A stretch of DNA of 64,000 nucleotides from Antedon mediterranea (taxonomy: Eukaryota; Animalia; Echinodermata). The stretch is taken from assembly GCF_964355755.1 (NCBI RefSeq), contig NC_092672.1, positions 37,702,437 through 37,766,436 of the forward strand, given 5' to 3'. Made by a program: the position numbers and the translations under genes. Within the stretch, counting starts at the first letter, position 1; every line of letters begins with the position of its first letter. Shown piece after piece: positions 4,697-64,000 of this stretch. The notes under the pieces were generated by a model. The model made no database searches. It was not told where the DNA came from and saw only the letters and a list, made by a program, of their open reading frames with translations.

Positions 4697-5160
4697 TTAG
4701 AGACAAATTTAGGTATGTTCTACTTTTTTTATGTCCTCCTCAGTTGAGAGATTTTCCCGGGCCTGTATCACAATGTCTTCTAATTCACTGGTTGTCTTTT
4801 TAGAGATAAATTTGGTTGAGATATGTTCTATTTCTTTGATGTAGTCTTCTCAGTTGAGAGATTTTCCCTGTATCACAATGTCTTCTAATTCACCGGTAGT
4901 CTTTTTAGAGATAAATTTGGTTGAGATATGTTCTATTTCTTTGATGTAGTCTTCTCAGTCGAGAGATTTTCCCTGTAGCATAATGTCTTCTAATTCACTG
5001 GTTGTCTTTTTAGAGATAAATTTGGTTGAGATATGTTCTATTTCTTTGATGTAGTCTTCTCAGTTGAGAGATTTTCCCTGTAACACAATGTCTTCTAATT
5101 CACCGGTAGTCTTTTTAGAGACAAATTTGCTTGAGATATGTTTCATAGTTCTTTGATTTC
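4697..5160. repeat. 105-bp tandem repeat (about 4 copies) covering the stop codon and proximal 3' UTR of the Roco gene
   Basis: tagaga(t/c)aaatttg recurs at 4801, 4906, 5011 and 5116. Confidence 0.92.
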
Positions 5161-8100
5161 CAGCTTTGTTAACAGATGTTTGTCAATCAGGCGTACCACA
5201 TCGCCACGCTTGATGTCGATCATACACTTTTTGAGATCTTCCAATGACCAACCTTTCTCGGACCATCCATTCATGATGCACATGGTAGGGCTGTCTTTTC
5301 TGGCCAAATAGTTGATATAGTGGTCATATCCAAGCTTACAAGCTACGCCACGCCAGTCATTAGCAAGTGGATGCTCAGGGTCCAGGAGGACACAGATCTC
5401 AGTCATGAGATCAAATGGCAGGATGGGTGCAGAGATCTCTTTGAAGATTCCACTGAGAGATCGCAGGAATACTGGTACTTTTGGCTTTACTGGAGAAGCA
5501 GTAACAGTGGCTTGGTGGCCTTCTGAAACATAATTTAAATTTTAATATTTAACTAAACTTTTTTTAGAGCCAGTCACTATATATATGAAGTAAAGTTGAC
5601 CAGGTAGATTTCCGTGACAAGATAGTTATTTTATTATTTATCATTTGAGGCTTAGGTGAGGCTTAGGGGTGGAGTAGGAAAAGTTGAGAGTTAAAACCTT
5701 GCAAGCATGTTAACCACCAACCTACAGCTCAACTACTACAGTTAGCTACAATAATATATTTTCTTCCACTACCTTGCTTTGGCTTGCTATCTCCAAACAA
5801 ACGTCTAAACCTCGCAGTCTTCATCCGTTGCAGCCCACATGGAACAAGTTTTGAGTTGAGGCATTTCTTAAGCTCATGCAAGTGAGTCTTCTCTTTGTAA
5901 CAGACACGACACAACACAAAGAAGCCGAAGTGCACACGCTTCATCCAGGTGTGACCCAAGTACAGCAGGTTGTTCTCTAGCAGTTCCAGTACCTGTAACA
6001 AGATGTTGTAGAGACCATTGAGACAGGCAATGTGACAATCATTACAAACTAACTAATATTAATTAATTAATAACTAAATTTGAACAAGAATTTTATAGTG
6101 ACCATTGAGACAGGCATTTCTAAAATTTTATTGAACAATTCAAAAAATCAATATATAATTTATGTGGTTTTTTCATAACATGTAGAAATTTGTTTTAATT
6201 TATAAATTCATGTAGAAATTTGTTTTAATTTATAAATTTTACACCTTGTTCAAATTGGAATTAAAATTTCCCCCATTCTTCAACGTCCATCCCAGACTAT
6301 TTTGGGCTGGGAGTTATGCAACTCAGCTGGGTTAGAAACGTAAGAAATACAAAGAGAATCGTCCAATTAAGAGAACATTGTTATTAAGAGCCAATCAATT
6401 CTCACCATTTTGCAGACACTTGGGCATGGTTCAACTTCATCTTCTTCATCCTCTTCTTCATCATCGCTGCAGACTGTACTAGCTCGCAAAATCACCACCT
6501 GGCGATAGAAGAACCAAAAAAAAGGAAAAAAGTTTAGATTCAATATCACTGTCACCGTGCCGATTAACATGGTTCTCCTGGGTTAAAATTCAAACTTTAG
6601 CGTATTTACCGTTTTCTTGTAGCTATTTTGGTCTACAAATGCAGCATGAAAAAATTTAAAGTTAAGACTTTAAAAACAGAAATGAAGATACAATAATGGA
6701 AACAGAAAACTGGGTCATGAACTTTGACATTCAAGGTCACATCCTTAACAACCGTTGTAGCCTACCTGGATGCAAGACCTCTTGTTCGGCAAGATTCTGA
6801 TAACCATGTCATGATCTTCATTCACGTACAAGTTAGCTTGTTGGAAGAAAAGTCTAGGCTCATATCCACCCTTGAGCTGCGACCACTGCACAAGCCTTAC
6901 AATGAGCCGATAGAACAGTCCTTCTGGCAGGAACCCATTGAAGTCAATGTACAGGACAACGGCAGTCTTTGACTTCATTAGATGTTCAAGGCAGATGACC
7001 TCATCTCCTTGGTTCTTCAACAGAGATGGCACATAGAAGAGACGATTGCCTTCCACTGCAGCTTGTGTCTATCAGAATATAAAATTATATATTTATATAT
7101 ATATCTATCTATCAGTATTTTAAAAACATATACAATTAATAGATGTTACAGTTAAGTATTATAATATCCCCAAACTTCAATTGACAGATTACTATCTACA
7201 AGAACCAATCAGAATATCCATACCTCAGTGGATTGTGTCTTGACACACAGCAAGTCAAATTTCTGCATCAGTTGTAACAAGCCTTCTAATTGGTCAAGAA
7301 AGTCATGCCACATGTGTCTAATTAGTCTCTCTTCCAGGAGTCCTTCTTCATCAAGTCTTGCCCAAGCACTTCTGAACTTTGCCCACTACACAAAAAATAA
7401 TTTTAACAACAATTACACAAACTCGCAAAGTGTGATTATTAAGAGTTAAAAATAATAAAATTAAACAAATTCTCATACTTGTTCTGAAGGATCTTTCACT
7501 GTGATGACTCTCTTGAAGATACATATTAACCACTGCGGACTGAGAATGATGATGTCATTGAGGGCGCTGTCTGGTGTGTCACGTTCTCCATAATATATCA
7601 TGTTACCAAGATCATGGTAGAAGTGCAACATAGTAAACAGTTGAATATCATTGAGGATACCACAACTAGAGGCCAGATCTCTAACCTGAAAATAATAACA
7701 CTTTTACTTACGGTTTGAAGGGTGGTTTCTAGGCTGAGCATTTTAAACCCCTTGTCATGCCAATGTTTATCAAGTTGTTTTTTTAAAGTTAATAGAGTTG
7801 GTGCGCTGACCAATTCTAATTTCAAAATCAAATAAAAGGGAAAAATGACTTGCCTGCTTGTAGCTAATTGAGTGTTTCTCTTTGTTGCGCAACTGCTCAA
7901 TCTCATTCAAGAAGTCCAGCCACTTCAAGGGGATTTTCTCACCCATGTAGTGTTCTTGCTTAGCTATCAATGTGATGTGATCCCTCAAATCAATTATGGA
8001 TTGATCCAATGGTCTTAGGCTGTTGTCAATGGCATAGAATTTGCACACAACATGACCTTCATATGGCGTTCCTTTCAATGATTTCTTAACCTCTGCTAAC

Positions 8101-11100
8101 TTTTCTTCGGCCTACAAAGTAAAACAATGAATTTGTAAATACAACATGACAAATTTCAATGCTGACATATACTTGTTCATGAAAAAGCATAGAGGAATTA
8201 ACTGATGTATAAAGAACAATCTAGTTTATGGAAGTATATCTATATAAAAGCAACGTATTTGTATTGGTTTATGCACAAATTTAAGTATGTATACTCAAAT
8301 CTACACCCTGGTAGCTTAGAGTTATCACAGCAGCAGTATGTGCTTAGACAATCATACTCACAAGAGCTTGTCTTTGTTGAGCGTTTGATAGCTTAGAGTT
8401 ATCACAGCAGCAGTATGTGCTTAGACAATCATACTCACAAGAGCTTGTCTTTGTTGAGCGTTTGATAGCTTAGAGTTATCACAGCAGCAGTATGTGCTTA
8501 GACAATCATACTCACAAGAGCTTGTCTTTGTTGCGCGTTTCCTGGTAAACTCTCTCTGTGAGTACCAACAATAAACACAGGTGGTGACAACTGTCTCTGC
8601 TTTGACACGGATGCATTTTCAGTTGTGTGTGAATAGATTGAACGTAACCAGAAGATCACAAAGTCCTTGTTGTTCATGTAGTGGTCAGAAACTGAAATCT
8701 GTAAGAGATAAGCGTGTTCATATTTATTACAATTAAAGTGTAACTTCTATTTTTAAACTATCCATTAGGTGTACATCCCCATTAGAACTTTTTGGTCAAA
8801 ATCCTTATCAGATAAATCAACTAAGCAGGTGATTAATTACCTGAATCCATACCCCTGTGATTTTATTAGCTCTCTTGTAATTGATTGATTAGGACAAGGT
8901 ACATTCTTCAGTATTCAAGGTTTAACGACCTCCCTATCAAAGTTTGACTTATATAAACACATGTCACAGTAGGAGGTTAAGTGACATTTACCCGAAGCTT
9001 TGAAAAACTTCGGGTAAAAATGAACACATTCTCTAATGGGGCTGTACACGTAATGTCTGTATTAATAGAGGTATTCATCCAATGTTGAAACACTGCTAAA
9101 TTAATTAATTAATTAATTAATTCCAGATTGTTAAAAAACATATTTCCTAACCTTTCCACCATCTCTGTTGAATACTTCAACTTTAGCAGGTGCATTCAGG
9201 TCGTGACAGAGATTGAAGCAAATTATGTAAATGGCACGTGATACCAGGAACACCTGTATATTTAAATAAAACAATTGTGTAAAACAAATTCTAATTCTTT
9301 TAAAATTTTTTATTTCATTTCTAAGAACACAATAGATAAAATACAAAAAAAGGTTTTAAAATTTATCATTGAAAAAAACATACTGTAATATAACATAAGA
9401 AAATTAAATAAAAACTAATAAAGTTGTTTGTGGTATAAAAAGTCTTTTGGTTTAGTTATACCATCACCCATCAAGTACTGTATTTTCTGTAAGTGGTTTA
9501 TTCAGGGTATTAAGCTCTGTCTACACTATCAAACTCTGTGACAAAAAAATGTGATGTGCCCATAATATGATGTCATATCACTACCATATTTGGGTGTATC
9601 ACTACCATATTTGGGCACATCACAGTTTTTTTGTCAAAATAGTTTGATAGTGTAGACAGAGCTTTAGCTGAATATGGATAAAGTAAATACTAAAAGATGT
9701 TTAACTGGAAACATCTTCTCACCTGATGAGTAATGTAATAAAGATCTTGTCCGGCAAAATCCCAGATGCTGAGAGTCAAATCATCAATCGTCTCGTCATC
9801 AATCACTTGATCCAACTCTTCAGTCTGTCCGAGCTTTTCCTTTTCTACAAGAATGTTCAAGACCATTTGAATGACCTCTTCGGGGACGTCAGGGGTCGTT
9901 GGGGTTGTTGCTTCCTCTTGTGAAGATATGCTTACTGGTGCATCAGTTTGATCTTCAGCAGAGTCACTATCAACATAATCTGTAGCGTAAAAGAACTTAT
10001 TAGATCACACATTCTTGTCAGCAATACACAATATGTTTGTTTGTTATTATTTATTTATACTAGGTGACCTCTTCAGTCAAAACAGTTCTCCCAGAGGGCT
10101 CAGTTATGATCAGTGGCTGTGAGTACACTAGTACACCGAAGTAACCCTCTACTTATCTCGAACGATGTACTAGGTTCTTTAAAGTGCAGCTAGATGTGTA
10201 CACTGGACCTTCGGTTTATAGTCCTTATCAGACAGTGCTAAGCTAATGTACTATTATTAACATATTAAAAACATACTGTACCTTCATAGGTAGAATCTAT
10301 GTAATCCTCATTGTAAGAAGAAGAATAAGACGCTGAATTCCCATCCATCCCTTGCTCTGCTCCACTACTATTACATTCTTGTTTCTTCCTTTCATCTTTC
10401 TTTGATGCCTGTGTAATTTAGAATAATGAAACACTATACTGATGAGTTATATAAAGCCTGTTATCCATTATCAAACGAAAATTTGTTTAGTTAAAATAAT
10501 AAAATAATTTAATCCAACCGATATGGGCTACTAATGTTATCAGGCCTAGATCCAACATGCATAATATAAGTCTTTCTATTTGCTTTATCCTGTATGTTAA
10601 CTAACCTTTTTCTTTTTCTGCAAAAGCTTTGTTGCAATTTTTTCTGCAACAGCTCTTAAATACTGCTGTCTTGCCTCACTTGTTTTTCCTAATAAAATAC
10701 AATTATTCAAAAAAGAGATTCTGAATACATTTATTTAAACAAATTTACAATGTAAAATATTATATTATACATAAATTAAATAATTTTATCCGTTAATAAT
10801 ATCATTTCAGTAATCTTTTTTACCATTTTCTGTTACAGTATATTTACTATAAATAATGATTTATAATTTAGTTTTTTTAAGTTGTTATCACATTGTGGTA
10901 CAGGTACTAAAATCAAAACCAATTCTTATTAATGTAAATACCTTCTGTTTGTTTTGGTTTCCAGTTGGTTGTGTGTTTAACACTGAGTGTGCATGACAGT
11001 GATGTTTCTATTCCATCTGTAACTTCTTCTGTGTCATTAAATCTAAAGTAAAGATCAAAGGTAGTTAACTGTTTACTATATTTACAACTTCTAATGTTCT

Positions 11101-14100
11101 ATAGATAAAATTATGTATCTAAACTGTTGAAAATGTGGGTAATATTTGTAGTGTCAGTCCAATACATATTTTGATAAATTTTGTTACCTTTCTAAACAAT
11201 CATAATGTTGGCTGTGAGTGCTCTAGCCCACCTCAACCCAGCACATTATTTAAGATCAATCACAATTACTTACTCTTGACCAGTGAGGGCTTTGGTAAGG
11301 CTGGTTTTGCCAACACGCTCTTGTCCAACAAGCATCAAACGTGTTTGATAGATAGATTTGCTGCCCTCTTCAATAGCATCGAGAAATGCAATATTAGCCT
11401 CCAGCCCCCTCGCCAACACTTCAAGAGGCACCTGGCCTGGGTTTGAGAAACAAATAAAAACAGAGAGATTAAACAAACTGTATAAATCAAAATAAGCTAA
11501 TACCACCAGGGCCAAGTGTTCAGGTAACAACATTTAAGTAATTTAGTAGCATATTTTACAAAAATATGAAAAAATAACACATTAGTGGCATTGAACACAA
11601 TTTTTGTTAATGGGTAAGTTTGAAGGCTAACCACTTCCCCCTCCCCACCCCCACCCAATATTTTCAAAAGAAGTGAAGCAAAATTGTGGTGGTCCCACTC
11701 CCTAAATACTAACCTCCTTTAATATCTGTAACTTCATCTCCATAACGTATCGTTAGCTCGTCTTTGACCACTACAGCATTCGATGCATACCCAGTGTACA
11801 AATACACCTCTTTTAAGCCTTTTCTTTTGAACTTAGTCATAAATCGGTGGATAGCATTCAGCATGAGATAAGAGCACTGATACTCGCCGATGGATGTATA
11901 GCGGTTTGAGATTATAGGAAGTACAACCGTCTCTACGCCAGCTTGTTCTGCCATGTTCAAACAATCAAAGGTGCATGTTTCAATCTGTAGGCTCTGTTGT
12001 GTGAAGTCCGTAGCGTTCTCATCGTTACCACGTACATGGTAAAGTTGCTGAAATGGAAGCTTCCCAGCTGATGTTGCAACTGTATTTTTCTGGTGACCTT
12101 TTGAACTTGCAAATGCTTCCTGTATCGTGTCAGTTGACAGACCAGCTGAAAATTACAAATATTTTGTTTTAACTAAAATTTGTAAATTAAAACAAAATTT
12201 ACTCAAACATAAGTAATGTAGTTTCTTTTGCCAAAAGAGTAACATATTGACCTTTGACCTCTTGAGGAACTTACCTGGTATACAAAATAGTGTGTTGTTT
12301 TCAACCAATAGATTTCAAATCTCTTGCTAAAAAGGAGGCTTGAATTTAGCACCTTAAATAATATAACTGAATGATATAAAAGTCTCTGCAACCAAATAAT
12401 TAAGCACTAAGTTGGTGCCTGGTCAAATTAAAATTTCAATCACCTCACATTTTCCTAAAGAAGCCAATTAACACTAAGTTGTAATTACCTTCAACTAGTA
12501 TTCTTGCCGTCAATCCAGAATAAGAGACGTTGTAGTTAGCTGTAGGATTCATGAGCACGTCTGCAGACTGTTTCGTTGGATTCCCGGTAGCAACAATAAG
12601 ACGGGTTTGCGAGTCAGGGTAGGTGTACTCACAAAATAATTGAGTAGGTATGCGGTAGGGTCTTGATGCTTCAAAGAGAAATGTATCATTTTGAATAAAG
12701 CTAGGAGAAAGATGAACGTGCTGTTGCAATGAAAAAGTTAACAATTGCAATATTTAACATACACTTGTAGGTTGTAGGAGAAAACAACATGGATTATAAA
12801 CTACAACATGATGAATTTATTTTTACCGAAATCTGACTAAATTTTTTAAACAAAATCCTTGTAGGATTCAAAATGTTTATCTGTTTTTTGATACAATAAA
12901 ATGAGAAAAATTAGCGATAAATTAACCTCGACAGTTTTGCTGTCCTGATCGGACAGAATTTGCCCTCTAGAGGTCAATTATTTAATGACATATTTGTCTT
13001 TCTTAGGAAGAAGCTGTCCAATCAGTCAATTTAAAATCCTTGTAGACTATTTACTGCAAGCACTTTGTGCTCTTAATGCAAACAATAAGTTAAAACCTTC
13101 AACCAAGGTTAAAATCTATTGTTAGTTGTTACCTACCTTTTCTCTCAACGACATACTTTTCCAAAGCCTTTTTAAAAGCCAAAGCTTTTGTAGGAATCTT
13201 ATCAATAAATATCACTTTTCTGATACTAGATCTACTAGACATGTGTAAAAAGTAATCCAGGACTGCAGACACAATGACCTCAGCACACGTATGTTCCATC
13301 TCACCCCTTCTTCCTAGATTGAAATGCCAAAACGAGCTGTACAGGAGGGGAATGGTGATAGACACGCATTGTAGATCTTTTTCACATTTTTGCAATGATT
13401 CAGTTATGTTTTGTGTTAATATGCATTTCCATGTTAACGTGTCATCTGTGTCTGGAACATTCACATGAATGATATGTTTACATTTGAGATCTCCGCCAAC
13501 AGTTGCAACAACTTGGTTGTTTACTGACCTGGAACGACGCAAAACTGACAATGTTGCAATAAATTTTTCCAATACATCTTCTCCGGCTAAAAAAAAGAAG
13601 AAAATCATACATCGATTACTAAAAATAGGCCAAGACATTTTTTTTTTTAATAGGTTTTTACTCTGAAATTCACAAGATATGACCTTGCACAAAAGATTCA
13701 TTTTATAGTATGCACTATAAAGAGGCTATTTTATGTAAAAAAAAGGAACAATTACAATCTCACCAATTTTTAGTGCTGCTACTCCTAAACCAAAACCAGC
13801 TCGTTCATAACGTTTGTCAAATGTAGTTACAATTATCGCATCGGTAGCTTGATAAAACATATCATCGCAAAACACTTTGAAGGTAACATTGTATAAGTCT
13901 TGTTGGGATAACACTCTGTTTTCTTCAGGTAGTGTCACTCTTGGTAACACTGGTGTAACCAGAGGAAATAAATGTTCATAGGAACTTTCTGTCTTTGCTT
14001 TGAGAGAGTCATCTTCTTCATTGCCTAAAAAATGAAATACTTAATTAATTTTGTCATTCATGAAAGTTGAGTGGATAGGATGTTGACATATTCGGTATAT

Positions 14101-17100
14101 ATCTGATTTGATAGATTATTATATTTGGTAACTATTATTACTGTACAGTATTTGGTAGCTATATTACTGTACTGTATTTGGTAGGTATATTAATGTACTG
14201 TATTTGGGAGGTATATTACTGTACCGTATTTGGGAGGTATATTACTGTACTGTATTTGGGAGGTATATTACTGTACTGTATTTGGTAGCTATATTACTGT
14301 ACTGTATTTGGTAGCTATATTACTGTACTGTATTTGGGAGGTATATTACTGTACTGTATTTGGGAGGTATATTACTGTACTGTATTTGGTAGCTATATTA
14401 CTGTACTGTATTTTTTATTTATTTTTTTATTTATTCGGTATATAAAAATATATTACAAAACGACAGTCAAGGACTGAAATGAAATGTATTACAAATGACT
14501 AAAAATTAGTTAAAATTGCTATAAAAATAGAAACATCTTAATAAAATTAGATATCGTACCATACAATTAAAAACATACATGAATAAAAAACCTTAAAACC
14601 TTCACTTATTACATATCTAAAAAAGAGCTAGTGGTGCCTATTAATTATATCCACCATGGTGGGAACTGGAGACGACCTAAGTCTGCTGGTTTTACAATGA
14701 GGTACTTCTAGAAAGCGGTTGACTCTGAGAGACCGAGCTGGCTTATGAAGAGGGGGAAGTATTTCTCTAAACAGCTCGGATTTTAATAAGCCTTCCCCGA
14801 AAGACAACACAAGTTTGTTTCTTCTCTCTACAAGAGTAGGTAAACCAGTAACAGACAATGCATGATCATAGCACAAATAGTTGTTACCTAGCATGATACG
14901 CAATGCTCTCTTTTGTACCTTTTCAATAGACTTGGACATGTCCTTAGTGATAGCGCCATGCCAAACAGGGGCAGCATATTCTAAAATAGGTCTTATATAC
15001 GCCATATAAACAGTCAACAGATCATTAATTAAGATTCCTGCTTTCTTCAAAATGCACAAGGAAAATAAACGTCTAGAAGCTCTAGACACAATATTATTAG
15101 TGTTAAGTTCCCATTTCAGGTCATTTTGAATGATTACACCAAGAAGCGTCATGTGATCAACTACTTGTAAAATGGAACCACTCAGACTAAAAGAAGGCGA
15201 TATAATATCATCCGACTTGTCCTTAAGAAAATTGACAACCAAGATATGGCATTTGGAGGGTTTGGGTATCATATTATTGGATGAACACCAAACACTCAGA
15301 TCATCTAACAGGGATTGCATGGAAGGCAAATCACCTTTGCGAACGACCTCCCCAAGGGTGAGGTCATCCACATATTTCCATCGTCTGCAGCAATCAACAC
15401 AAGCATCGTTAATAAGTACTAGGAAAAGTACAGGGCCAAGCAATGTCCCCTGTGGGACCCCACAAGTCAGTGACTTTGAAGATGACAAAATCCCAGCAAA
15501 CTTGGTGTTGAGAGAACGGGAAGTGAGAAAGCTGCAGACGATGGGAATTATGGACGACCTCACACCCAGTTCAATCAACTTTATAATAATAACATTATGA
15601 TCAACACGATCAAAAGCTTTAGTAAAGTCAGTGGCACATAGGTTAACATAACATTTACCCTTCTCAACATCTTTGAGTGTAGAGTCAATAAGACTAACAA
15701 GATAGTGAGTTGAGGAAGCCTTTTTCCTACTACCAAATTGACGAGAATCTAATTTACCCTTAATATCTTCAAGAATCCACTTAACAATAAAAGATTCAAA
15801 TACCCTGGCAAGAACATAGGTAAGGGAAATAGGTCTAAGGTCAGAGACAGAACTAGCATTCACTGTTTTAGGAATGGGAACTGCAGTAGCCCTTTTCCAA
15901 AGGTCGGGGAAAACACCATCCTTCAATGCATGATTGAAGATATCCGCAACAGGTTCAGCAAGTTCAGGAGCAAAATCTCTATATAGTTTAATAGGAGGTT
16001 CATCTGGATGGCCAGCTTTGTTAGGCTTAAGATTACAAAGGGCTTTTAGGACCTGACCAGCATATATTAAAGGTGGTGGCCCAGGGGCTGGGAGATAAGC
16101 AGGCAAATCGTTTAAATTAAGAGGAGGGATGGCATTACAAACACTAGAGAAATGGGCATTGGTAGCTATATTACTGTACTGTATTTGGGAGGTATATTAC
16201 TGTACTGTATTTGGGAGGTATATTACTGTACTGTATTTGGGAGGTATATTACTGTACTGTATTTGGGAGGTATATTACTGTACCGTATTTGGGAGGTATA
16301 TTACTGTACTGTATTTGGTAGCTATATTACTGATACTGTATTTGGGAGGTATATTACTTTACTGTATTTGGGAGGTATATTACTGTACTGTATTTGGTAG
16401 CTATATTACTGTACTGTATTTGGGAGGTATATTACTGTACTGTATTTGGGAGGTATATTACTGTAGCTGTATTTGGGAGGTATATTACTGTACTGTATTG
16501 GGAGGTATATTACTGTACTGTATTTGGGAGGTATATTACTGTACTGTATTTGGGAGGTATAATGTACTGTATTTGGTAGCTATATTACTGTACTGTATTT
16601 GGGAGGTATATTACTGTACTGTATTTGGTAGCTATATTACTGTACTGTATTTGGTAGCTATATTACTGTACTGTATTTGGGAGGTATATTACTGTACTGT
16701 ATTTGGTAGCTATATTACTGTACTGTATTTGGGAGGTATATTACTGTACTGTATTTGGTAGCTATATTAATGTACTGTATTTGGTAGATATACTGTTACA
16801 GTGTATTTTGGTAGCTAGATTACTCTATTTGATTGATGATTGATTACTGCCTCTGCCGACATTTCCGCTACTGTTACTGTATTTGTTAGATATACTGTAA
16901 TGTTACAATGTATTTGGTAGCTAGATTACTGTATTTGGTAAATATAATGTATTTGGTAGCTATGTATTAACTATATTAATTTATTAATCAAAATAAGTTG
17001 GCAGAAGTGTACCTGCTGACTGTGAGACACTATTCTTGAAAGCTGATATTGGTACACTTTTTGCTTTTACTCTTGGAGACTTCTTTTTCTTAGATTTATC

Positions 17101-17999
17101 TACAATTTAAAATATATGTACGTAAAGAATTAAATTCATGTTTGGTATAACCTAATAATATATTAAAATAGTAGATCATCACCAGTGTAAACTAATATTC
17201 ACTTTGTTAACTTCACCAAAGTACTACACTACCATTATTTAATTAATTAATTTAAACTTTACAAAAAGTACACTACCATTGCTTTCTGATAGTAATGGCA
17301 CTTTCTGCAGTGGTGTACCACTAGTGTTAACCCTTAGTTTTGGAGAATTTTTGACGTCAGTACTACCACTAGTAGTAGATCCTTTTTTGGATGGCGACTT
17401 AGAATCTATAAAAACAATTTATCATTATAAATAATAATCATTATTCAGTATTGGAATGTTAATGTTAATTGTTATAGGCCTATAGGCCTAGGCCTATAGG
17501 CTATATATAATATTAATAATACTGTACTGATTATTACTGAAATTTGTTACATTGTTGTATTTAATCAATCATCCTGCTACTCTAAATAACAATGTAAACT
17601 GGAAGCCACTGACTTACCACTACTTTTACTTTTAAGCTTAGATTTGCCTGACAACGACGTGTGCTGCTGCTCCATGGGGCCTTCGTTGTTTACTTGGCCA
17701 GTATTTAGGTCCTCGTCCCTTTCCGTTGGAGGAACCCTAGGCCTAGAAACTTTTAAGTCGTTTAGTAAAGCGCTAGGCAGCCTTACCCTAGTGTGTGGTT
17801 CATACGATGTATGGGTGGGATCGATATCAAGTTGTGAATAAGCGATATCAGTAATTTCATTGAGTAAAGCAGCCGGTAATTTCCGGACTTTTAATGATTC
17901 GGTTTCCTCCTCGGTTTCATACCAAATAGCTCCATGATCATTATCATACTTGTTTCGCCGATCGGCGGCGGAGGAGGCCTCTCTGCTGCTGCTCCTCAT
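5143..17999 (-). CDS. Roco-family protein with architecture Macro-Macro-Roc-COR-Death, about 1488 aa. 20 exons: 17618-17999, 17013-17099, 13764-14024, 13133-13586, 12489-12700, 11714-12145, 11274-11436, 10942-11042, 10606-10688, 10282-10408, 9723-9979, 9152-9253, 8516-8698, 7854-8111, 7479-7685, 7224-7385, 6766-7068, 6406-6498, 5773-5992, 5143-5522
   Basis: Exon phases all join and total 4467 nt. Roc motifs: RLMLVGQERVGKTSL, VTDGIET, SIWDFAGQDLYYITHQVF, PVFIVGTHRE. COR: IPLKWLDF, LHFYHDLGNMIYY, IILSPQWLICIFKRVIT, LPEGLFYRLIVRL. Death domain: LLDPEHPLANDWRGVACKLG. Macro-like segments: ATDAIIV...TVGGDLKCKHIIHV and SADVLMNPTA...TSAGKLPFQQLYHV. Confidence 0.88.
8312..8540. repeat. 77-bp tandem triplication that includes the end of Roco exon 13 and its splice donor
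   Basis: tagcttagagttatcacagc recurs at 8312, 8389 and 8466; each unit contains ctcacaagagcttgtctttgttg. Confidence 0.93.
8769..9049. mobile_element. Short terminal-inverted-repeat element (MITE)
   Basis: gtgtacatccccattaga ... tctaatggggctgtacac inverted termini. Confidence 0.6.
9513..9663. mobile_element. MITE family A (PIF/Harbinger/Tourist-like), complete copy
   Basis: TIRs agctctgtctacactatcaaac / gtttgatagtgtagacagagct, TTA on both sides, internal ~21-bp subrepeats. Confidence 0.85.
10050..10235 (-). mobile_element. SINE fragment with Deu/Nin-like core
   Basis: Minus strand reads gataaggactataaaccgaaggtcc...gcactttaaagaacctagtac...agtagagggttac; related to 50037-50400. Confidence 0.6.
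14135..14410. repeat. 26-bp minisatellite (tatattactgtactgtatttgg(g/t)ag(g/c)), left part of an array split by a LINE
   Basis: Tandem units visible; array resumes at 16159. Confidence 0.95.
14411..16158 (-). mobile_element. 5'-truncated non-LTR retrotransposon (CR1/L2-group-like) with an uninterrupted reverse-transcriptase frame (14628-16158)
   Basis: RT motifs LRPISLT, QFGSR, DFTKAFDRVDH, GVPQGTLLGPVLF, KYVDD; A-rich (TAAA)n-like tail at 14411-14435; no endonuclease present because of the truncation. Confidence 0.92.
16159..16790. repeat. 26-bp minisatellite, right part of the split array
   Basis: Same unit as 14135-14410. Confidence 0.95.
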
Positions 18000-20616: not shown

Positions 20617-23600
20617 TTAGTTGTTTTGTTGGTAAGCTGCAATTGGAGGGTGTTGACCTTGTCCGCCTAAAATTAAACAATAAAGTTTGTTAAAGCTGAA
20701 ATTATGTTAATAAAATGTATCATGAGGGACAGGATTATTTACTTAAGGGGAAAATTAAAAAGCAATAAGGTTTACCGCAAATAGCGTTAGTGACGCATGG
20801 TGGGAATGATTTGGGAGCAAGCGCCACAACGCGTACGTATATGATTTACTTTTTGATCCCAAAACCTTCCCACCATGCACTGTACAATGACGTTCCTTGT
20901 GTAATGAAGCTATTTGCGATAAACCATATAACCTGATTACCTTGTTGTTGTTGTTGTAGGTATTGTATATTGCCACTTGGCAACATGACTGTATGTGAAT
21001 GTAGTTGTCCAGCTGTTCCTCCTCCTCCTCCTACATACATCATGTTAGGTTGCACGTGAGGATGTGTATGCGGACTGGTGTGTACAGTTGTCATATTTGT
21101 TATACTATGAGAGGTTGCAGAGTATGGCTGCGGTTGTGGCTGCTGCTGCTGTGGTTGTTGATGCATCATGACCGTCGTTAAGGCCTGTTGTGATTGTGGC
21201 GTGTGGCCTTGAATTTGTTGGCTATGTTGAGGGACACTATACAGTAGTAGACCTGGTTGGGTAGGCTGTGATGGTGATTGTATAGGATGTTGTACAGGAC
21301 TTGGGGTTGGTCTATGCCCTTGTGGAGGCTGTTGAGGGTGTTGGTTTAAATTCTGGTTTTGTGCTGGTTGTACTGGCTGTGGATTAGGATGAGGATGATT
21401 GACTGACTGAACCATTTGATGGTGAGTAGCTTGGCCCTGGGGGTGTTGTCCTTGCTGAGCAGACTGGGGATGATGAGGGTATAAAGATGCTTGTTGCTGA
21501 CCTGGATAGACTTGATTTGGACCTTGTGGTGTTACTGAAATTAAACAAAAATAAACCATAATAAATAATCAACAATTGTTCCAAACTGGTTTCTGTTGTG
21601 GTGCTATTTCTTTATTATGCTAATTACTGCCTCTGTGTGATAGGTATACAAGTACTCTAGGCTTTGATTACAGCTCTGATGATAAGAAATATTTTTATAA
21701 TTTTAAGACATTTTCATTAAATGCCTTTTACTGATTCTCGCTCGTATTGATATGACTTTTAAATATCCAATCTTGTATTTATTATACACTGGACTGCAAT
21801 AACGACTATTTGATTGAACACTATGATCCTTAACACTACTTTTCCTATAAGTCAAAAGTTGAGCAGCATTTTTTGTAAGAAATATTTCTTGTTTTTATAG
21901 TTTACTCACCAAATACTGGAGGATTACCATCTTGCAGTGAATGCATCTGGGCTTGTGATTGCTGTACATTGGGTATTTGATTGGGATGACCTGAACGGTA
22001 AGGCAGCTTTGAAAAATAAAACAAACAATAGATGTATACATAGTCGGAAATCTACTCCATTTACAGAATCGGACTTCTAACTAGTAGTCCAAAACACTAG
22101 TAAAATAAAACAAACAATTGATGGATACATAGTCGGAAATCTACTCCATTTACAGAATCGGACTGCTAACTAGTAGTCCAAAACACTAGTAAAATGAAAC
22201 AATTGACGGCTACATAGTCGGAAATCTACTCCATTTACAGAATCGGACTGCTAACTAGTAGTCAGAAACACTAGTTAAATAAAACTGTGAACATTTATTT
22301 CTGATATAAATGAAAAGATAAATTGAATACAGTAGCTCGTGGCCGTTTATATTAGTTTTAGGATTAGGTTTTAGGATTAGTGCTTGCTTCATTTATTCTA
22401 TTGTCCAAACATAGATCTTTATTCCATCTACATTGTGTGGTATAGAATAGCACTGGGTTGTATGGCACGCAATAAGTGCATTATAACATTGTATAGGGTA
22501 ATTATTTACCAGACTAATAAGTTCAAATCGTACCTTTGGTTGGTGTTGCACTGGCACAAATTGCATTTGGTGATGATGCTGCATTATATGCGGTCCTGGC
22601 ATCATGTGACCAGGATGGGAACCCGGAGGAAAGGGGGCAACTGAGTAATGTGAAGGGGCAACTAGTGGTGAACCTGTGACTGCTTGAACTTGACCAGATT
22701 GTAAGTCTCCTTGTTGCTGAGGTCGTGGGGGCAGATTACTTGCCTCTGGAAATAAAAAAAAAAAAACAATATGATTGAATCAAAACGGTAAGACAATTTT
22801 CTGAAATATATTAAAGGGGGATTCGGGGTTTAAAATTGCTTTTAAATATCGTTTATTTATTAAATAAAAAATATTATAACAATATAGACATGTCAGAATG
22901 AAGAAGTAATAACGAGAAATTAAAAAAATTTAATTTCATATACATTTTAGGGGAAATTCTTGGAAAGTCTGTTTTTCAGCAGCTTAGGGAAGCTCATTAA
23001 TATTCATGAGATATTCACAAAATCACGTCATCAGTGAATTCCAAACTCGCGACGTCATGTACGTTGTGTTTGTCAACTAATTTACATCTCTCTCCCCTGT
23101 CAAACGACGACCACCCGATCATTGTGAAATACATTTTTTGTAGATTTTCTAAGCTAGGCCTAAAGTGTAATAATAACAGTAGTAGCATTTATTTGAAATT
23201 TAATAAAATACAAAATTTAGTACAGATTACGGAGTCATAAATTATATACTATTTTCATACCTCGAATAGTACAGACAGATTGTGTTATTGGCTTCACGTA
23301 CTAGGTTAGCCTAGCCTAAATAATTTTTTTTCATGGGTGAGAGCCATTCTGACTAGGGATTCCATGCCACGATGGCTACGTTAAAACATTGGGGCCCATC
23401 ATGGGCCTATTACTAAACGATTGGCCCATAAATAACAAAACTCAGTGAATTCCAAAACCCATCCTATCAACCAAACTCCTAAACAATCTAAACCTAAAAC
23501 ATTCTACAAAATCGGCTGTAAATATTGAGGCAAAACAAGGTCCGATCGCCGTCCGCACGTATGGTGTCCCGATCGTCTAAAGTAGGCCTAAAATAGGCCT

Positions 23601-26600
23601 AGTTTACTCTCCAAAAACTGCATCAAGCAAGTAGACCAGGTAGTAGGAAGGAGACCTAGCCAATCCGGCCCAGTTAAAAATTGAGCTAGCTAGTGTAGTA
23701 GACCCTATGCGAATTGATACTACCAGGCCTTTTACTATAGGCTACACTTGTTAAAATTAGCAATACTTATGTTTACAAATATTCCAACTCTCTCATTCGA
23801 GCTATATTATCTATACCATTCCGGTAGATCGAGCCGACCTTCAATCAAATACTGTTATGTATGTACATCGTTCATGTTGTGATTATAGACGGGGTATACT
23901 CGACCCGACCAGTTTGGTATTGTATACTGTATCTGCTTATCACGTAACGATGCCAGGCATGGGCAGAGAGAACACGTGTATCGTCGTCTCGCTCTCCTAG
24001 CTCGCTCAGCAGGAATGTATACGTTACGCTTCATTGATTTTGAAGGCTTTCCCTAAGTCAGTGCGAAAATCGGCAAACGTAAAGTGCAAACATATCTAAT
24101 TTTTCACTGTTTTGATGAATTTTCATAGAAAATTGACTTTATAAATGGGAAGACCGACTAAAATTACATCAGATAAGTATAATTTTACAAAAGTAATTGA
24201 TATGGTTAATGATAACGAGTCGTCGGAAGATTGACCATTTCACAAATTTCCTATTCTGTAACAGTGTCATATCGCCGTAGCTGCACTTGTAATCTGGCCT
24301 CATTTCACAGCCTTCGTTCTACTTCACTGGGCGCTTATATAAATTGAAACTTTTACCGTTCAAGAGACAAATATATTTTACATTTTTTACTATTCATTTT
24401 AAACCCGGAACCCCCCTTTAATGTTTATTTTATTATTTATTAATTAAACTTCACAAGGCACATACTAAAACAAAGAAGGGAGAAACTAACAAGCTCAATG
24501 TTTAAAGAAATTGTAAAACACAAAAAAAATTATATATACGTTGTTACTAAATAATAAAATTAGTAGACAAAAAACCTACCCATTATCAAAAACATTTTTT
24601 TTTTAATGTCGATTCTTTAAGAGACATTTAATAAGATGATGATATACAAATTTTATACAAATAACTTACGTTTATGATATTTTTTATGTAAAGGAATTGG
24701 AGTGTAAACCATAGGCATTTGATTTAGAACCGCCGTGTATGGGGGGTGTCCAGCAACAAGTTGTGGCATTGCCATTTGCGTGTGTATCGTAGGGCTTTGA
24801 CTCTGTCGTGAATGTGGTCGTGGCGGCGTTGGTGTTTTACTGAGAGACACTTTGCGTAGCGAGTTCTGAAAATAAAATATACAAGAATAAATAATGACAT
24901 TCACCTAAAAAATGTTCTAAAATAGAATATTTATTCTATGACATTCATGTCATTTCAATATTTATTCTATGACACCCATGTAATTTCAATTTTCTTGGAC
25001 AATAAAGAGCTTTGTATTTTGTAAAAAACATGGTTAAAGAAGATACAATTACTAAGTACCATCATGATACAGTAAAATTGATTGTATCATTATCATTATT
25101 AACAAATTCATTTACTGATACTTACTGCAGGTGTGAAAGGCTTAGCTGATGGGTTCAAGATAAACTCCTTGGCATTCGGATTTAACTTAAATCTGAAAAA
25201 AAAAATATTGAAAACATAATCTATACAATACATTTTGAAATTGGACATGCATGATTTCCAAGCAAATAAATAAAATACATTTTAGTTAAGTCCTAACATA
25301 TTATACCAAATTTGAAGATTACATTTTATTTTTAGTTCTTAGTAGTTCTTAGTAGTACTCCGGTGCTTGGTATGTTTATAAGTGAAATTAGTACCTGGTT
25401 GTATATGTGTTGGTGGAACCTCTTCAAACACCTTTATAATATATATGAAACGCTTTAAAGGATTCACACATGATTATTCAAATATTTATTCATTATTCTT
25501 CAGTTCCATGTGATTTCAAAACTATAAAATCTGAGTGAACTAAAAATTAGTATACATACTCTTGTTTCTTATCTTCAGCTATTCGTAGAGGTTGCTGAGC
25601 TGCAGCTTGTGGCTTCGGCTGCTGTTGCAGAATTATTTGTTGCTGCTGATTAAGTTTCTGCGCAGCCACTTGAGGTAACTGCTGCGGTGGTATAACCTGC
25701 GTTATTGGTGCTTGAGGGTGGCCAGATGGCTGCACATTCTGTATAGGGCGTGTTTGAGATGACTGTAATGGTTGTGCTACCTGCTGTACTGGAGGCTGCT
25801 GGTTTGGTTGCGATGAAGCAGCTGGATTTAAAGGCTGCACACCAGGCTTAGGTTCACTGACTTGTGTAGGCCCATGGTTATTAGTTTGTACATTTTGGGT
25901 ATCTTGCAACTAAAAAAATTAAACATTTTTAAAATCAAACAAATAAAAATTGAAGCAATTCAAATTGACGGTAATCACAATAAATATAAAATGCAGTATA
26001 AGATAAGAATCATTTAATAACTTACCCTAAAATTGGCACTAAATTCATTTAATTCATTAATTTTTTGCGCTGAAAAAACAATGTAAAAATTAAATTACAA
26101 ATTGATTGGCAAATTTCCTGAAACTGATCATTTAGGGGCCTTGGAAAAAAAAAAGCAAAACATGTATTGAATATTCAAATGAACATTACAATATATTCAG
26201 GCATTTTGAAAATTGTAGGTGTGATACAAATTGCACTTCTCAGTACATATTCAGATGTGTCATTTGTATCTTGGGTTGTAGAAGTGTAAAGCTTTGTTTA
26301 CACTATCAAACTTTATCCGACAAAAAAGTGTGATGTGCCCATATATAGTAGTGATATGCCTAATTATGGTAGTGATGTGCCCATATATAGTAGTGATATG
26401 CCTAATTATGGTAGTGATGTGCCCATATATAGTAGTGATATGCCTAATTATGGTAGTGATGTGCCCATATATAGTAGTGATATGCCTAATTATGGTAGTG
26501 ATGTGCAAAGTTTGATAGTGTAAACATAGCATAAGAGCTCAGTTTAGGAGACATTCATTGAGGCGATAGCTTACATTTCTGTGATTTCTGTGGTTTCTTA

Positions 26601-29600
26601 TCATCAGCTTGTTGTGTAGATTCCACCATTGGACTTGGTACTCTGGGTATATCCTTGTTTGGTTGTTTAACCATGTTGGCCGGAGGTCCAGGACTAGACG
26701 TTCGTATTGATTCTGGTTTTACTTCTAAAAACAAAAATAAAAATTACTTAAATACAGAAGCTTTTAATTTTTCGTTTCCATTCCTTAATATTTGAGAATG
26801 TCAGAGAAGATCAACCACAAAAGTGACTGCTGATGCATAATAAATAATATTTACCTCTGTGAGACACCATATTTCCATGCTGTGAATTGGTTCCTGCCAC
26901 AACTTGAGCCGCTGATCTTGGCGGTCGGGATTCATATGAAAGTCGTGCATCCTGCGATGAAAGCCTAACATCTTGTGATTGTTGTCTATTGTCCATTCGT
27001 GTATCTCGTTCGTCAATGTGCCTAGGAGGCCTTGATATATTCTGCATCGGGGGTCGTTGACCTCCTTGTGTTGGCGTATTAGGTCTGTGAGATGATTGGT
27101 TGTAATTCCTCGGAGGTGGTTTTTGATTTGATCGTAAATGTGGTGGCACATATCTATTCGGAAATAACAGGAAAATGTAATACATTATTAAATGCATACT
27201 TCTGATACGACCTAAATGCTAAAATGCTTGAAGGTATGTTTTATTTCTGAGAATCTTAGTGTCTTCAACTAAAAATGACTTAAATATTCATAATATATAT
27301 TATAGCCACTTTTCATTTATTTATGCAACACAATCGGTCAAGGGGTTGCGACAACTACAATGCACTATACAACAAACTACAAAATACAATTATAAAAATA
27401 TATAAAACAAGATAATTAAAATACACATAAAGAGAACAAAATATTATATACAAAAATTATTTATATTTTTTAGGTCTTTTTGGCAAAAGTGAACTTTATT
27501 AAAACTACAAAATGACTTTAAACAGAAATATATCAGCTCTCTATTAAAAAATATCAAATTAAATTTTGTTGTATCTAATTGAACAGTCTAAAAAAAATAT
27601 CAAAACAGATTTATATTGAATCTTTTGAGTTGCAGGATCAACATAATAATGATCTGTATTGATAATACTGTAGTAGTATTAGTTTGTAGTTTATTGACAA
27701 CTTCACTTCCGCCACTAAGTCTGTGCTTTGATTGTAAAACAGCTGCTATTGCTCTAAGGCACTGGACTTGGTCAGGTTAATAGCCATAAATAGACGGATA
27801 CAATTACATGCATATTTATGTATATATTTAAAACCAGTACAATTCATTTAAAATGTATTAGACAAACATTTTTCTAAAGCCTGTTTTGATTAGACAATTT
27901 TACTTGCTGGAATTAAAAGCTTTAAGGGTCTTTCACACCTGTTCCGGCATGGTTCTGGTCCGGCGGCGGAAAATCCAATCGAACATTAATGTGTCATTTT
28001 CACGCGGCTACGCACATATCGATTGGCGCATAGCCGCTGGGAGCGTCGTGAAAACGAAACATTAATGTTCGACCAGAACTGTGCTGGAACAGGTGTGAAC
28101 GACCCTTTATGCTTGTCCATATTTGTATTTTGATGTAAGAAATGCACAACCAATCAGCACCCAGGAATGCTTGAGTTTTGCCAATAGATTTACCTTGTGA
28201 GGGCATGTGGACACAGTGTGTTGGACGTTCGACTCCTGATCACGAGATCAAGCATTGCTTGTATCGTTAGGCAAGATACTTTACTTACATTTTCTTCTCT
28301 CCACACAGGTCTATAAAATTGGTACCCGGTTAGATCAAGACACAACTTTGCTCTGATTACTAGCTGCATTATGGTAGTATGTTTCCATACATATTTGATC
28401 CAAAAAAATGACTAGGGTAATACTGTTTCACAATAAGGCGCTATATAAATCCAGGATATTATTATTATTGTAGAAAACAGATTTAATACATGAAATGTTG
28501 AATCCTACTTACTTCTGAGGACCTGTATTTCCTTCATTTTGTGTTTTTGGACTGCCAGATCTATTTTGTTGAGATCCTGGGCTCATCCTAGCCTTTGGAC
28601 GCTGGACAGCACTAAACTTGTCTTCTTCTGTTAAACCGTCATCTAATTCCATAGCAGTACGTTCCTTGTAACCCGTACTTCCTTCAATTTCTGCTGCTAA
28701 ACGGTTTGCACGTTCTTGCTTCGATCGATATTCTTCCGAATCATCTTTATGTAATACAGTCCTGAAAAAATAATAAACAATTTTGATTAAAAGACTAGGA
28801 AGTTTTAGATTTGTGACTAAGCTCTTTTTACACCATCAAACTTTGTGTGACAAAAAAATGTGATGTGCCCATATATGGACATTGATGTCATATCACTACC
28901 ATATTTGGGCACATCACACTAGTTTTATAGTGTAGAAAGAGCTTAGGAACTAGGAACTAGTTACGTCATGTTGATTATATGTACGAATTTACAGATGATG
29001 GAATGTGCTTCCTTACTTGATTCACAGTTTTGGTGAAATTTAGACAACGATAACACAATAATTTAGACAGGCAATGAACGATAAAAACAATATGAGTAGG
29101 TCTAAGGTAAAATGCCAATGCCAATAAAAAATTATTTTAAAGTTATTCAGGATTACGAATTAGGAAACGTTTACTACATAACTTTAAAATAAAATGTCAA
29201 CGTTTCGTAACCATCATGGAACTATTCTCAAGAACAAATGAGTAAAATTAACAAAAAATCAGGATTATATTGTAAAATATGAAGCAAGTAGGAGGTAAAA
29301 CTTACGTGTAATCTTGTAGAGTTTTATCATATGAAGATTCATACCCAAATTGTTTTTCATTAGCTTTAAACATATCTTCTACACTCCAACCATTCTGTAA
29401 AAAAAAAGAAGGGAAATTCAAACTAGGCCTATTTTTACTCTTTTGTCCTTAAGTTTGGTTCCAACTAGAGATACAATGCAAGGACGTAGAATCAACGCAA
29501 GCGAGTTGACCAATAACAAGCGACTGTTAGAATAATCCATTACCTGTGATTGGTCAAATGCATTGCATCTCTAGTTGGAATCAAGAATTACTAATAAGCT

Positions 29601-32600
29601 CAGACAACCAGTAGGAGGTTTTGTTTCATTTACATGATGTAAGATAAGATAAGATAAGATAACTTTTATTGATCCTCAAAAAGGAAATTCATTGCTCGTC
29701 ATAATAACAAGAAAACACAATAAAAACAAATATAGCATAAAACCATTCATATAAAAACATCAAAAAATACAAGATAAAATTATCTTCTTGACTTTCTGTC
29801 GTACTGGATGATACCGGAGGGAATAAAGGATTTGGCATATCGATTTGTTTTCACACTGAGGAGCCTCAATCTACCACTTGGATTAAGTTGGTCTATGATC
29901 ACTTTGTGAAATGGCAATGATGATTTATTTATTTCATACTCATCCAACAGCGAGTAACCCGCCAATTACAGGATGGATAAACTATTTGAAATTTCACAAG
30001 ACAAACATATACACAAGATGCTCTACATAAACAAAGACTTATTATTAAGTCTTTGGGAGTGGAGTTGTAAATTGTCATGAGAAAAAAACCCTGACATATG
30101 ACAGGACTTGAACCCAGGACCCTTAGATTGGTAGCCAAGCATCATAACCACCAAGCCACAGCTCCACTCTGATAATGATGAAATAGAATAGATAATGATG
30201 CTGACCTCAATGAATATATAATAAATAATAATTTAATCAAAATAAATATAACTGGACGTACCGTATCACCATCTAAAGATAAATCTGCTGATGCATCGTT
30301 GCTTGGCGTCCACTGCTCAAGTTCTCGTTCACCCGCCTGACCATTTGATTTCTTCCCGCTGATATCTCCATCCGTCATGAAACCGGACTGTGAATCACCT
30401 AAAACAAATAAAAAAATTTTTATCAAAACTCTTTGAATAGATATAACTATATAAACCAATTAAAAAAAAATAAAATATCAATATATATATCAATAATATT
30501 ATCAAAAATGGTTTTACTACTCTAAACCCCTTCACTATGCCCTCTCTTAAAATTATGCAATTTGCCGTTAACCATTTATAAATAGCATTTTACCCTATAA
30601 TTCAACATTTATTAGTTTCTATCAATGGTATACAATAAAAAAGAATGATAATTTATAATGAGAAAATACAAAAAATACCATTAATAGAGGATCTTGCAAG
30701 AAGATCCTTGTAGGTTAAAGACTTACATGAACCCCTACAATGTGGTACAGTCAACTCTCCCAATACCGGACACCTTTGGGCCGGCCAAATAAGTCTGGTT
30801 TTCCGGAAAGTCTGGTATTCGGAATGTGTTTTTAATGGTAAATATAAATTTGGGACCTTTTGGTCCTCAAAAAAAGTCTGGTATTGGGAGAGTTTCTGGT
30901 TTTCAGAGAGTCTGGTATTGGGAGAGTTTCTGGTTTTCAGAGAGTCCGGTATTGGGAGAGTTGACTGTATACGCTTTGTACAAACTCAATAACACATTGT
31001 AACAATAACTACTAACTTCATGTTATTAGTGATTTCAATAACAGGATGGTTTCAATTTAATTGTTAATTAGCGGGTGGAAAACCACTAAATGTTTCAATC
31101 CTATCAATCATAATTTAGGTCATTATAATAATCGGCTTGCTTAAATTGAGTGTACAACCACATTGTTGACATTGTTATCATTGGAGGTTGATATTGACAA
31201 GTCATTTGAACAGGACCTTAACAAATCTGAGTTTATTCAATGATAAAATTGTATAAAAAGAATTTGTAACCATACATTTTAATAACGATATGACATAAAT
31301 GCTGTTTTTTCTTTTATAAGGGTTACGTAATGTTTTTTGTGGTGATGTTTTTTGTTGTTTTTAAATCTTACTATCCTATCAAGTACTGGTAGAGGCAAGA
31401 CTTTAATATTGCTAAATTGGTATACTACTTAGCAAGCTACAATTATTAAACAAGCCTATTTGGTAATCAGTCAACTCTCCCAATACCAGACTCTCTGATC
31501 AGATTTTTCGGGCCCAAAATTCTTCTTTAAAAAAAAAAAATAAAAATAAAAAACACATTTGGAATGGCAGGATTTTCAAAATATCAGAATTTGCGGAAAG
31601 GGTGACCAGTATTGGTAGAGTTGACTGTACAGTATATAATGTAGTTTAACATACTTTTAACAGCGTATTCAACATCAACATCTCGTGCTGTAAGAGATAC
31701 TATATCTTTGGCTTTAATCACCAGTTTATCTATAACTCTGTCCTTATTTGGTACTTCATTTGTGTTACCTTCTATCATATGTACCACTTCTAATACAACC
31801 TCAGCCTGAAAGAAGAATAACAAAATACTGTACATCACCATTTAACATACAGGACACAATTGACATTTGAAATACAGGAATAAAGGGTCTTTCACACCTG
31901 TTCCGGTACGGCGCCGGAAAATCCAATCGAACGTCAATGTTTTGTTTTCACGCGGCTACCCGCATAGCAATTGGCGCATAGCCGCGTGGAGCGTTGTGAA
32001 AACGAAACATTGATGTTCGATTCACCGGACCGGAACCGTGCCGGAACAGGTGTGAAAGACTCTGGGAAGAAGTTTTAATTATTTGAAAAATGTTTATACT
32101 TTTTTTTATTTTATAAGCTACTGTACAGTACCACTACCGTTTGAAAAACTAGCAAAAATATTGACAGAAAATTTACATATATTATAGAAATGTTATCCTT
32201 TACATAAATATGAAACAAATACAATCCTCTATCAAACAATACTTCAAAAAAAAGAATAGGGGAATTACAGTATTCCAATTGCTGTGGTACAAGGTGTACA
32301 ATCCACTGTCATTCTTAAATTGAATAATTAGGAATAATTTGGACATAACCACTTCCACAGGTTGCTATCCTTCTTCCTGTGCTTACATTACACATGACTA
32401 ACATGGCAACAGTTGCCAGTCTTACAACCAACATATGGTACAGTGTATTGCATTCAGTTTTAGTAAGAATGTAAAGGAAAATGGACAGAAAAGAATGGTT
32501 AACTTTCTAGCCCAGTAAGAAGAGTGAAGAAACACAAATTATATTGAGCACTAAATTATAATAAAAATCAACTAATTTTGTATTCAAAATCTACTTTTGA

Positions 32601-45080: not shown

Positions 45081-45116
45081 TGAGGGCTAATTAAGTAATT
45101 AGCTCCTCCTACTGAG

Positions 45117-47598: not shown

Positions 47599-47987
47599 CT
47601 TGCTTAGGAAAAGAAAAATTAACCTATAAGACCTTTCACGTACACAATTCTGACAAAAACCTACTGAATATAGTTGATTTTAAATCAGTGTTTTTTAAAA
47701 TGCATAATTGTATTATATCCTTTATATATTGCTCTATATAATTATATTTTAGCAAAAATGTGACAAATTGAAAAAAGTAGAGGGCGTTTGATGTTAATTA
47801 ACATCTATTAAAACGCGTTACATTATTTGCTGACGCATTTCTGTTGTTACACAAAAGAGGTCATCCTGGCTGGAAGATCAAAACAATCAAGATTTATGAA
47901 GTCAAATCAGAACATAAATATGTAGGATTTAGGGTAATATTAACCCCTCTGATCTGATTTTTTTGCAGATTAAACTATATTAGAATA

Positions 47988-63885: not shown

Positions 63886-64000
63886 GTATGAATATTTCTA
63901 CATCAATCATAATAAAAATTATTGAGAACTGGCATGGTATGGATTCTTATAAATGGGAAACATGGGGGAAAATAACAAAAGAATATTTGTGAATTATTTG

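Follow-up and report, generated by a model that had tools for sequence, protein, structure and literature searches.

The window analysed here is a 64,000-nucleotide (nt) stretch of the genome of the feather star Antedon mediterranea, a crinoid (contig NC_092672.1, positions 37,702,437 to 37,766,436). Between an ATG at 17999 and a stop at 5143, its minus strand carries a gene whose 21 exons splice into a reading frame of 4560 nt and 1519 amino acids (aa) with a single terminal stop, joining a pair of macrodomains to a Roc GTPase, a COR and a Death domain. The spliced product is letter-identical to RefSeq XP_071946532.1 (P0004), an uncharacterised protein of this species, and 19 of the 20 introns have GT-AG ends, the exception being intron 15 (GC-AG). 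A preceding sequence-only reading of this DNA had proposed 20 in-phase exons; the single open frame stands and the count does not, its exons 3-6 corresponding to our exons 4-7 and its junction 6-7 to our 7-8.

Exon 1 (17618..17999; aa 1-128) encodes a low-complexity N-terminus without a Pfam family and matches RefSeq. It is followed by a Ser/Lys-rich linker in exon 2 (17277..17405), which is based on RefSeq identity and not on reads, and a basic linker in exon 3 (17013..17099), the end of which is read by the loose end of a contig from sequencing run X1 (see below); both exons are phase 1-1. Macrodomain 1 begins in exon 4 (13764..14024; aa 200-287, with Asp254) and ends in exon 5 (13137..13586; diphosphate loop P366-L-L-Y-S-S371; Pfam Macro 22.8 bits). 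Macrodomain 2 is likewise split between exon 6 (12489..12668; G465-N-P and loop 1 S487-G-L) and exon 7 (11714..12145; diphosphate loop P573-I-I-S-N-R578-Y-T-S; Pfam Macro 29.0 bits). The phase 1 intron 7 (11437..11713; 277 nt) separates macro from Roc exons and is spliced out in the X1 contig. Exon 8 (11274..11436) encodes pre-Roc helices and the P-loop G678-QERVGKTS, while exons 9-12 (11042-10942, 10688-10606, 10408-10282 and 9979-9723) contribute switch I (T703-D-G), a low-complexity insert of ~145 aa and switch II (W871-DFAGQ). Low-complexity stretches cover aa 1-235 and 720-865. The remainder of Roc with G4 (G963-THRE) and the start of COR-A lie in exons 13-15 (9253-9152, 8698-8516 and 8111-7854), which are followed by the GC donor of intron 15. 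COR-A and COR-B (Pfam E 1e-16 and 6e-4) extend over exons 16-20 (7685-7479, 7385-7224, 7068-6766, 6498-6406 and 5992-5773), recovered as contig pieces, and exon 21 (5143..5522) holds the Death domain (aa 1434-1507; Pfam E 1.7e-9) and the stop codon.

Five sequencing runs hold the region, among which X1 contains 38% of the sampled words; its type is recorded merely as a guess of RNA. Over positions 10250-14100, X1 has zero depth in 7 of 30 bins, all 7 of them intronic. One X1 contig of 1527 nt comprises the last part of exon 5 and the exons up to and including exon 11; its loose end reads exon 12, and its joints (12668/13137, 12145/12489, 11435/11713, 11042/11274, 10687/10941 and 10407/10605) are exact CT..AC skips. 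Joint 11435/11713 skips the 277 nt at the macro-to-Roc junction. Run X2 traverses 10250-14100 unspliced and has none of these joints. A second X1 contig (1803 nt) covers exons 15-21 with offsets compatible with exons 17 and 19, and an X1 loose end at 14026 carries the end of the exon 3 sequence; the joints between exons 12, 13 and 14 are based on the RefSeq model and colinearity with homologues. The junction 11714/11436, on which the proposed fusion depended, is thus confirmed: macro and Roc exons occur in one spliced contig and not in separate genes. The macro pair, Roc-COR and Death domain are encoded by one spliced gene and joined in one message.

A tandem acceptor at 5525-5520, just before the Death exon, yields isoforms of 1519 and 1518 aa that differ by one Glu (P0004 and P0001), and the X1 contig uses the longer form. 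At the GC donor of intron 15 (7853-7686), spliced contig pieces abut.

When single exons were scanned with Pfam, exons 5 and 7 passed the Macro cut-off (22 bits), exon 16 that of COR-A and exon 21 that of Death. In the full protein, Macro (two stretches), Roc (49 bits; cut-off 27), COR-A (61.5 bits; cut-off 35.3) and Death exceeded their cut-offs, while COR-B remained below (20 bits; cut-off 27). The protein has eight Pfam families at E<=0.1, and kinase, LRR and ankyrin domains are absent from them, in agreement with the sequence-only reading. As expected of a Roco protein, G1-G3 of Roc are intact (GQERVGKTS, TDG and WDFAGQ) and COR follows immediately C-terminal of Roc. With aa 640-1400 as the Roc-COR query, 77 of 7009 candidate proteins were matched at E<=1e-10. 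G4 reads THRE; in the 74 of these 77 hits that could be matched, its fourth residue is N in 23, E in 17, D in 17 and another residue in 17. Variation in G4-G5 is known from Roco proteins (PMC6337361). An AlphaFold2 (AF2) model of the paralogue P0008, which is 58% identical in Roc-COR, matches LRRK1, C. tepidum Roco and LRRK2 (E 2e-16 to 6e-15). The best solved death domain by sequence is that of UNC5B (E 6e-8).

The macrodomains point to a PARP14-like source. A PDB profile search with four crinoid macro pairs returned PARP14, macroH2A, PARP9 and PARP15, and the AF2 model of the macro pair shows two macro folds (pLDDT 86.7) whose top Foldseek match is PARP14 macrodomains 1+2 (E 6e-23), the input alignment consisting of PARP14-like rows, so that the fold is partly alignment-led. 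Pfam, the PDB profile and AF2/Foldseek therefore agree on the two macrodomain folds originally assigned to these exons. Phase 1 is shared by introns 1-7, and two exons encode each macrodomain as a phase 1-1 unit, interrupted at the same motif in both; this layout fits exon shuffling. Searched against 1.84 billion representatives, the macro profile gave 682 matches at E<=0.001, headed by two crinoid proteins (817 and 727 bits) with the next at <=123 bits. Roc-COR was present in 0 of the 148 non-crinoid proteins among the matches listed. Pfam annotation of 22 of these 148 found Macro in all 22, together with PARP or PARP14-type RRM/KH in 19 and a Deltex tail in 1, with 3 carrying Macro only (overlaps counted as listed); these 22 are macroPARP-like or multi-macro proteins.

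The pockets have diverged from those of free macrodomains. The diphosphate is held by the diphosphate loop, and the hydrolase motifs N(6x)GG[VLI] and G[VIA][YF]G are located there and in loop 1 (PMC10470015, PMC10221186). Our free reference comprised 431 domains from the 148 listed proteins, with the anchor Pro present in 413. Counted from this Pro, 373 of the 413 combine a small +3 residue with Gly +5, and 386 have Gly +5. By comparison, Gly +5 is absent from all 10 Roco-fused macrodomains of crinoids and all 5 of the brittle star Amphiura, and Tyr occupies +3 in 9 of the 10 crinoid domains. The Antedon loops read PLLYSS in macrodomain 1, with Tyr where relatives have Gly or Ser, and PIISNRYTS in macrodomain 2. 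Asp is found at the adenine-contact position in 9 of the 10 crinoid domains, while Antedon macrodomain 2 has Asn-Pro at the Asp-Ile position. This domain aligns to PARP14 macrodomain 1 and has lost both hydrolase motifs (A..SGL and RYTS). We infer that the pair probably lacks hydrolase activity. Reading of ADP-ribose, the input step in the sequence-only model, appears doubtful as well, because the diphosphate-loop Gly is absent from both domains, macrodomain 1 has Tyr in place of Gly/Ser and the hydrolase motifs are gone.

The altered loops are conserved in both crinoid species, Antedon and Anneissia japonica (PLLYS and P-x-I-[YS]-N-R-Y), between which the macrodomains are 51-69% and the Roc insert 43-46% identical. 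Between X1 and the window, macrodomain 1 carries 10 synonymous and 8 mostly conservative replacement differences. The macrodomains are thus still constrained. Of the 27 coding differences recorded for X1, 19 lie in macrodomain 1 (exons 4-5; 13137-14024), most of them on a second haplotype of lower depth, which could reflect allelic diversity or contig ascertainment.

Custom profiles detected Neuralized in 26, TIR in 38 and Macro in 7 of the 77 Roc-COR hits. A tree was built from 53 rows (52 of the 77 plus P0006) after dropping isoforms, near-duplicates, some molluscan rows and the weakest hits; it is a quick search rooted on four coral rows and comes with long-branch warnings. A first group (19 rows, support 99) unites the Neuralized-Roc-COR-Death-TIR gene of molluscs, annelids, amphioxus, hemichordates and echinoderms, its Antedon copy being P0021. 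The second group (30 rows) is echinoderm-only, with a support of just 81, and splits by class: support is 100 each for sea stars, urchins and crinoids and 90 for the brittle star Amphiura. The window protein falls in the crinoid clade (9 rows, 100), outside the Neuralized clade and beside four Antedon paralogues that lack macrodomains. In Anneissia we found Death-Macro2-Roc-COR-Death (P0002, P0006), DED-Macro2-Roc-COR-Death (P0003) and Ras-like-Macro2-Roc-COR (P0011), and P0002, P0003 and P0011 share one scaffold as a tandem cluster with three different N-termini. By Pfam, three Amphiura Roc-COR proteins also contain Macro, one of them as Death-TIR-Macro2-Roc-COR-Death. Further Pfam modules in the echinoderm group include DED, Death, CARD with RIG-I helicase, Schlafen AlbA_2, kinase with ZU5, Ras-like and ankyrin domains, FN3 with TIR, CARD or kinase, and TAZ or TAZ-KIX in urchin and Amphiura. 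Judged by its sequence, the window protein belongs to an echinoderm radiation of kinase-less Roc-COR proteins with swapped end modules.

Among the computed models of this radiation, CBP/p300-type TAZ (with or without KIX) is attached to Roc-COR in P0030 (urchin) and P0068 (Amphiura), which sit on separate tree branches. In P0032 (Amphiura), a single RefSeq model joins a full CARD-RIG-I helicase-CTD to Roc-COR-Death.

The gene is flanked by minus-strand neighbours identified by Pfam as SPT6 (1-2700) and ataxin-2 (20800-31900). A long plus-strand gene at 47958-64000 is one we take to be HECTD4-like, with no Pfam hit in the two exons tried; ataxin-2 and HECTD4 also lie near each other in human. 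Between ataxin-2 and the HECTD4-like gene of the window is a second, broken retroelement (44312-46248, minus strand) with RVT_1 and zf-RVT fragments. Intron 3 contains a LINE-like reverse transcriptase frame of 522 codons (14628..16196, minus strand; Pfam RVT_1 E 1.4e-18), which is spliced out and lies outside the protein. It has an A-rich tail, shares the orientation of the gene and sits inside a 26-bp minisatellite (arrays at 14122-14413 and 16159-16792); it looks like a young 5'-truncated long interspersed element. A 77-bp tandem repeat (8312-8540; 3 copies, 99%) has copied the last part of exon 14, together with its splice donor, two times into the intron, and a 105-bp repeat (4714-5157; 4.2 copies) extends from the last codons into the start of the 3' untranslated region. 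A short element in intron 12 (9510-9666), with a summed depth above 100,000 and opposite-strand joints in both runs, is likely a high-copy repeat of the miniature inverted-repeat transposable element type.

For the function of the protein, we tentatively favour, at somewhat less than even confidence, a model in which the macro pair no longer binds its ligand and instead offers a surface for docking or as a decoy; once this surface is engaged, the Roc-COR cycle would shift and the death domain would be released. The pair would have been acquired by exon shuffling from a macroPARP and would then have lost hydrolase activity, and probably ADP-ribose binding, while its fold was kept under selection. 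The pair would be bound by another protein, perhaps one that a pathogen directs against macroPARPs, and this binding would shift the dimer-monomer cycle of Roc-COR, a unit predicted to change shape with nucleotide. The death domain would then engage a death-fold adaptor, recruiting an immune or cell-death partner; death domains act as homotypic adaptors. Macrodomains of macroPARPs are under positive selection and have been proposed as targets of viral antagonists (PMC4038475), and the output of DAPK1 is controlled by GTP binding to Roc (PMC6337361). The architecture makes the sensor-switch-effector logic of the earlier model plausible, while its notion that the input gates dimerisation is weakened: in the bacterial Roco model, the best-studied case, Roc-COR cycles between dimer and monomer with nucleotide, and GTP favours the monomers (PMC5714945).

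A wider version of this model appears unlikely to us as it stands. Echinoderms would possess an NLR-like receptor family built on a Roc-COR GTPase, in which each class expanded one kinase-less Roc-COR-Death gene and grafted onto it pathogen-targeted host domains as decoys or sensors, making it the first such GTPase-based system in animals. In this unlikely version, crinoids would have acquired dead-pocket PARP14 macrodomains, the urchin CBP-type TAZ/KIX and brittle stars both, with RIG-I helicase and Schlafen as further grafts. TAZ and KIX are viral targets.

Several observations weigh against the decoy model or its extension. Asp254 in macrodomain 1 and Asn477 in macrodomain 2 are retained, and Antedon macrodomain 2 still has Ser +3. 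Five related proteins of two species supply the 10 crinoid domains, which represent about two events, not ten. The macrodomain 1 differences between X1 and the window show no sign of diversifying selection. The exotic echinoderm fusions are computed gene models, of which P0058 looks mis-assembled and is likely an artefact. Finally, the Antedon gene is apparently single-copy among the Macro-bearing hits, unlike an expanded receptor family.

Among the alternatives to a decoy, the earlier model, in which recognition of ADP-ribosylated proteins or free ADP-ribose by the macro pair persists and gates Roc-COR and death-domain signalling, is unlikely. The folds are intact and closest to the readers PARP14, PARP9 and macroH2A, the tandem arrangement and the adenine-contact Asp are kept as described, and three brittle-star domains retain Gly +3; however, Gly +5 is missing from 15 of 15 Roco-fused macrodomains, the diphosphate loop carries Tyr or Arg, and Antedon macrodomain 2 has the Asn-Pro substitution. 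Similarly improbable is a pocket re-tuned to another ligand, such as nucleic acid, poly-ADP-ribose or another metabolite, with the pair still acting as a sensor. Some macrodomains bind nucleic acids, and the conservation of the altered loops across both crinoids fits a kept function, but is just as compatible with a protein interface or a structural role. We consider it quite improbable that the protein is a non-immune scaffold in development, regeneration or routine apoptosis, with the macrodomains as inert spacers or an autoinhibitory cap. The low copy number in Antedon, the housekeeping neighbours SPT6 and ataxin-2, the predominance of synonymous changes and a Neuralized-type sister gene that is one-to-one across bilaterians would suit such a role, whereas the class-wise turnover of the radiation, repeatedly with immune-type modules, and the Anneissia cluster with its three N-termini argue against it. 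Lastly, separate macro and Roc genes joined by prediction or rare read-through are highly improbable: the splicing evidence comes from one run of one study, of guessed type, and no single contig spans the full coding sequence, but one contig at the same depth (17.6) covers macrodomain 1 to switch II, the 277-nt intron has canonical ends, and four Anneissia proteins contain the same fusion.

With this gene, the LRRK2/DAPK1 family gains an input domain that is supported by transcript data and apparently undescribed. Its small, kinase-free product lends itself to studying the control that an N-terminal module exerts over a Roc-COR switch and a death domain. The loss of the pocket Gly in every Roco-fused macrodomain examined turns reader versus decoy into a sharp question. 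Should the decoy model be true, plant NLRs with integrated domains would have a candidate counterpart among animals in the echinoderm Roco radiation, whose fused modules would list targets of marine pathogens.

The nearest non-crinoid Roc-COR, at <=40% identity, belongs to the Neuralized(NHR)-Roc-COR-Death-TIR protein, which has been described in Aplysia (PMC9334734) and in oyster, centipede and sea urchin (PMC5094078). Both share P-loop and switch motifs, a long Roc insert, a relaxed G4, a Death domain after COR and the lack of a kinase; in contrast, the window protein has a macro pair instead of NHR and TIR, and Antedon's own NHR-type copy (P0021) lies in a separate clade. The window protein belongs neither to the 26 NHR carriers nor to the 38 TIR carriers in the 77 hits, and tblastn of Antedon NHR and TIR queries against the window gave nothing below E 0.07. 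Like the window protein, DAPK1 (Roco group 3, PMC6337361) ends in Roc-COR-Death and lacks LRRs, but its N-terminal kinase and ankyrin repeats are missing here by Pfam. The DAPK1-like framing of the sequence-only reading is weakened by the wide occurrence of the kinase-less Roc-COR-Death core in invertebrates (26 of the 77 hits being of the Neuralized type). No hit named DAPK1 occurs among the 77 Roc-COR proteins, and as far as this hit set allows, the window protein does not seem DAPK1-like by descent.

In placozoan Rocos, Roc-COR has variable flanks, among them CARD, death and Ras-like domains (PMC4104024); it is joined to variable effectors in prokaryotic AP-GTPase counter-invader proteins, whose proposed role is in immunity (PMC8195603). 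In the parts of these two papers available, both systems use LRR or TPR sensors and no macrodomain, while the window protein has macrodomains. The macroPARPs PARP14, PARP9 and PARP15 have the same type of tandem macrodomains and give the best sequence and structure matches, but the window protein lacks PARP, WWE, RRM and KH, and its diphosphate loop and hydrolase motifs are altered. In plant NLRs with integrated decoys, a nucleotide switch and a signalling domain carry an inactivated copy of a host domain. The window protein differs in having a Roc-COR GTPase instead of a STAND ATPase and no repeat domain, and its decoy role is a proposal; the Pfam scan found neither a NACHT/NB-ARC ATPase nor a repeat sensor, so that the likeness to NLRs is one of logic only. 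Full-text literature searches, including the available parts of PMC11378527 and PMC10499325 and with figures and most subscription papers outside their scope, returned no macrodomain Roco, which accords with the original claim of novelty. The Macro-Macro-Roc-COR-Death architecture thus seems undescribed, although it is visible to any RefSeq scan: the kinase-less Roc-COR-Death core is already known, and the macro front end is new.

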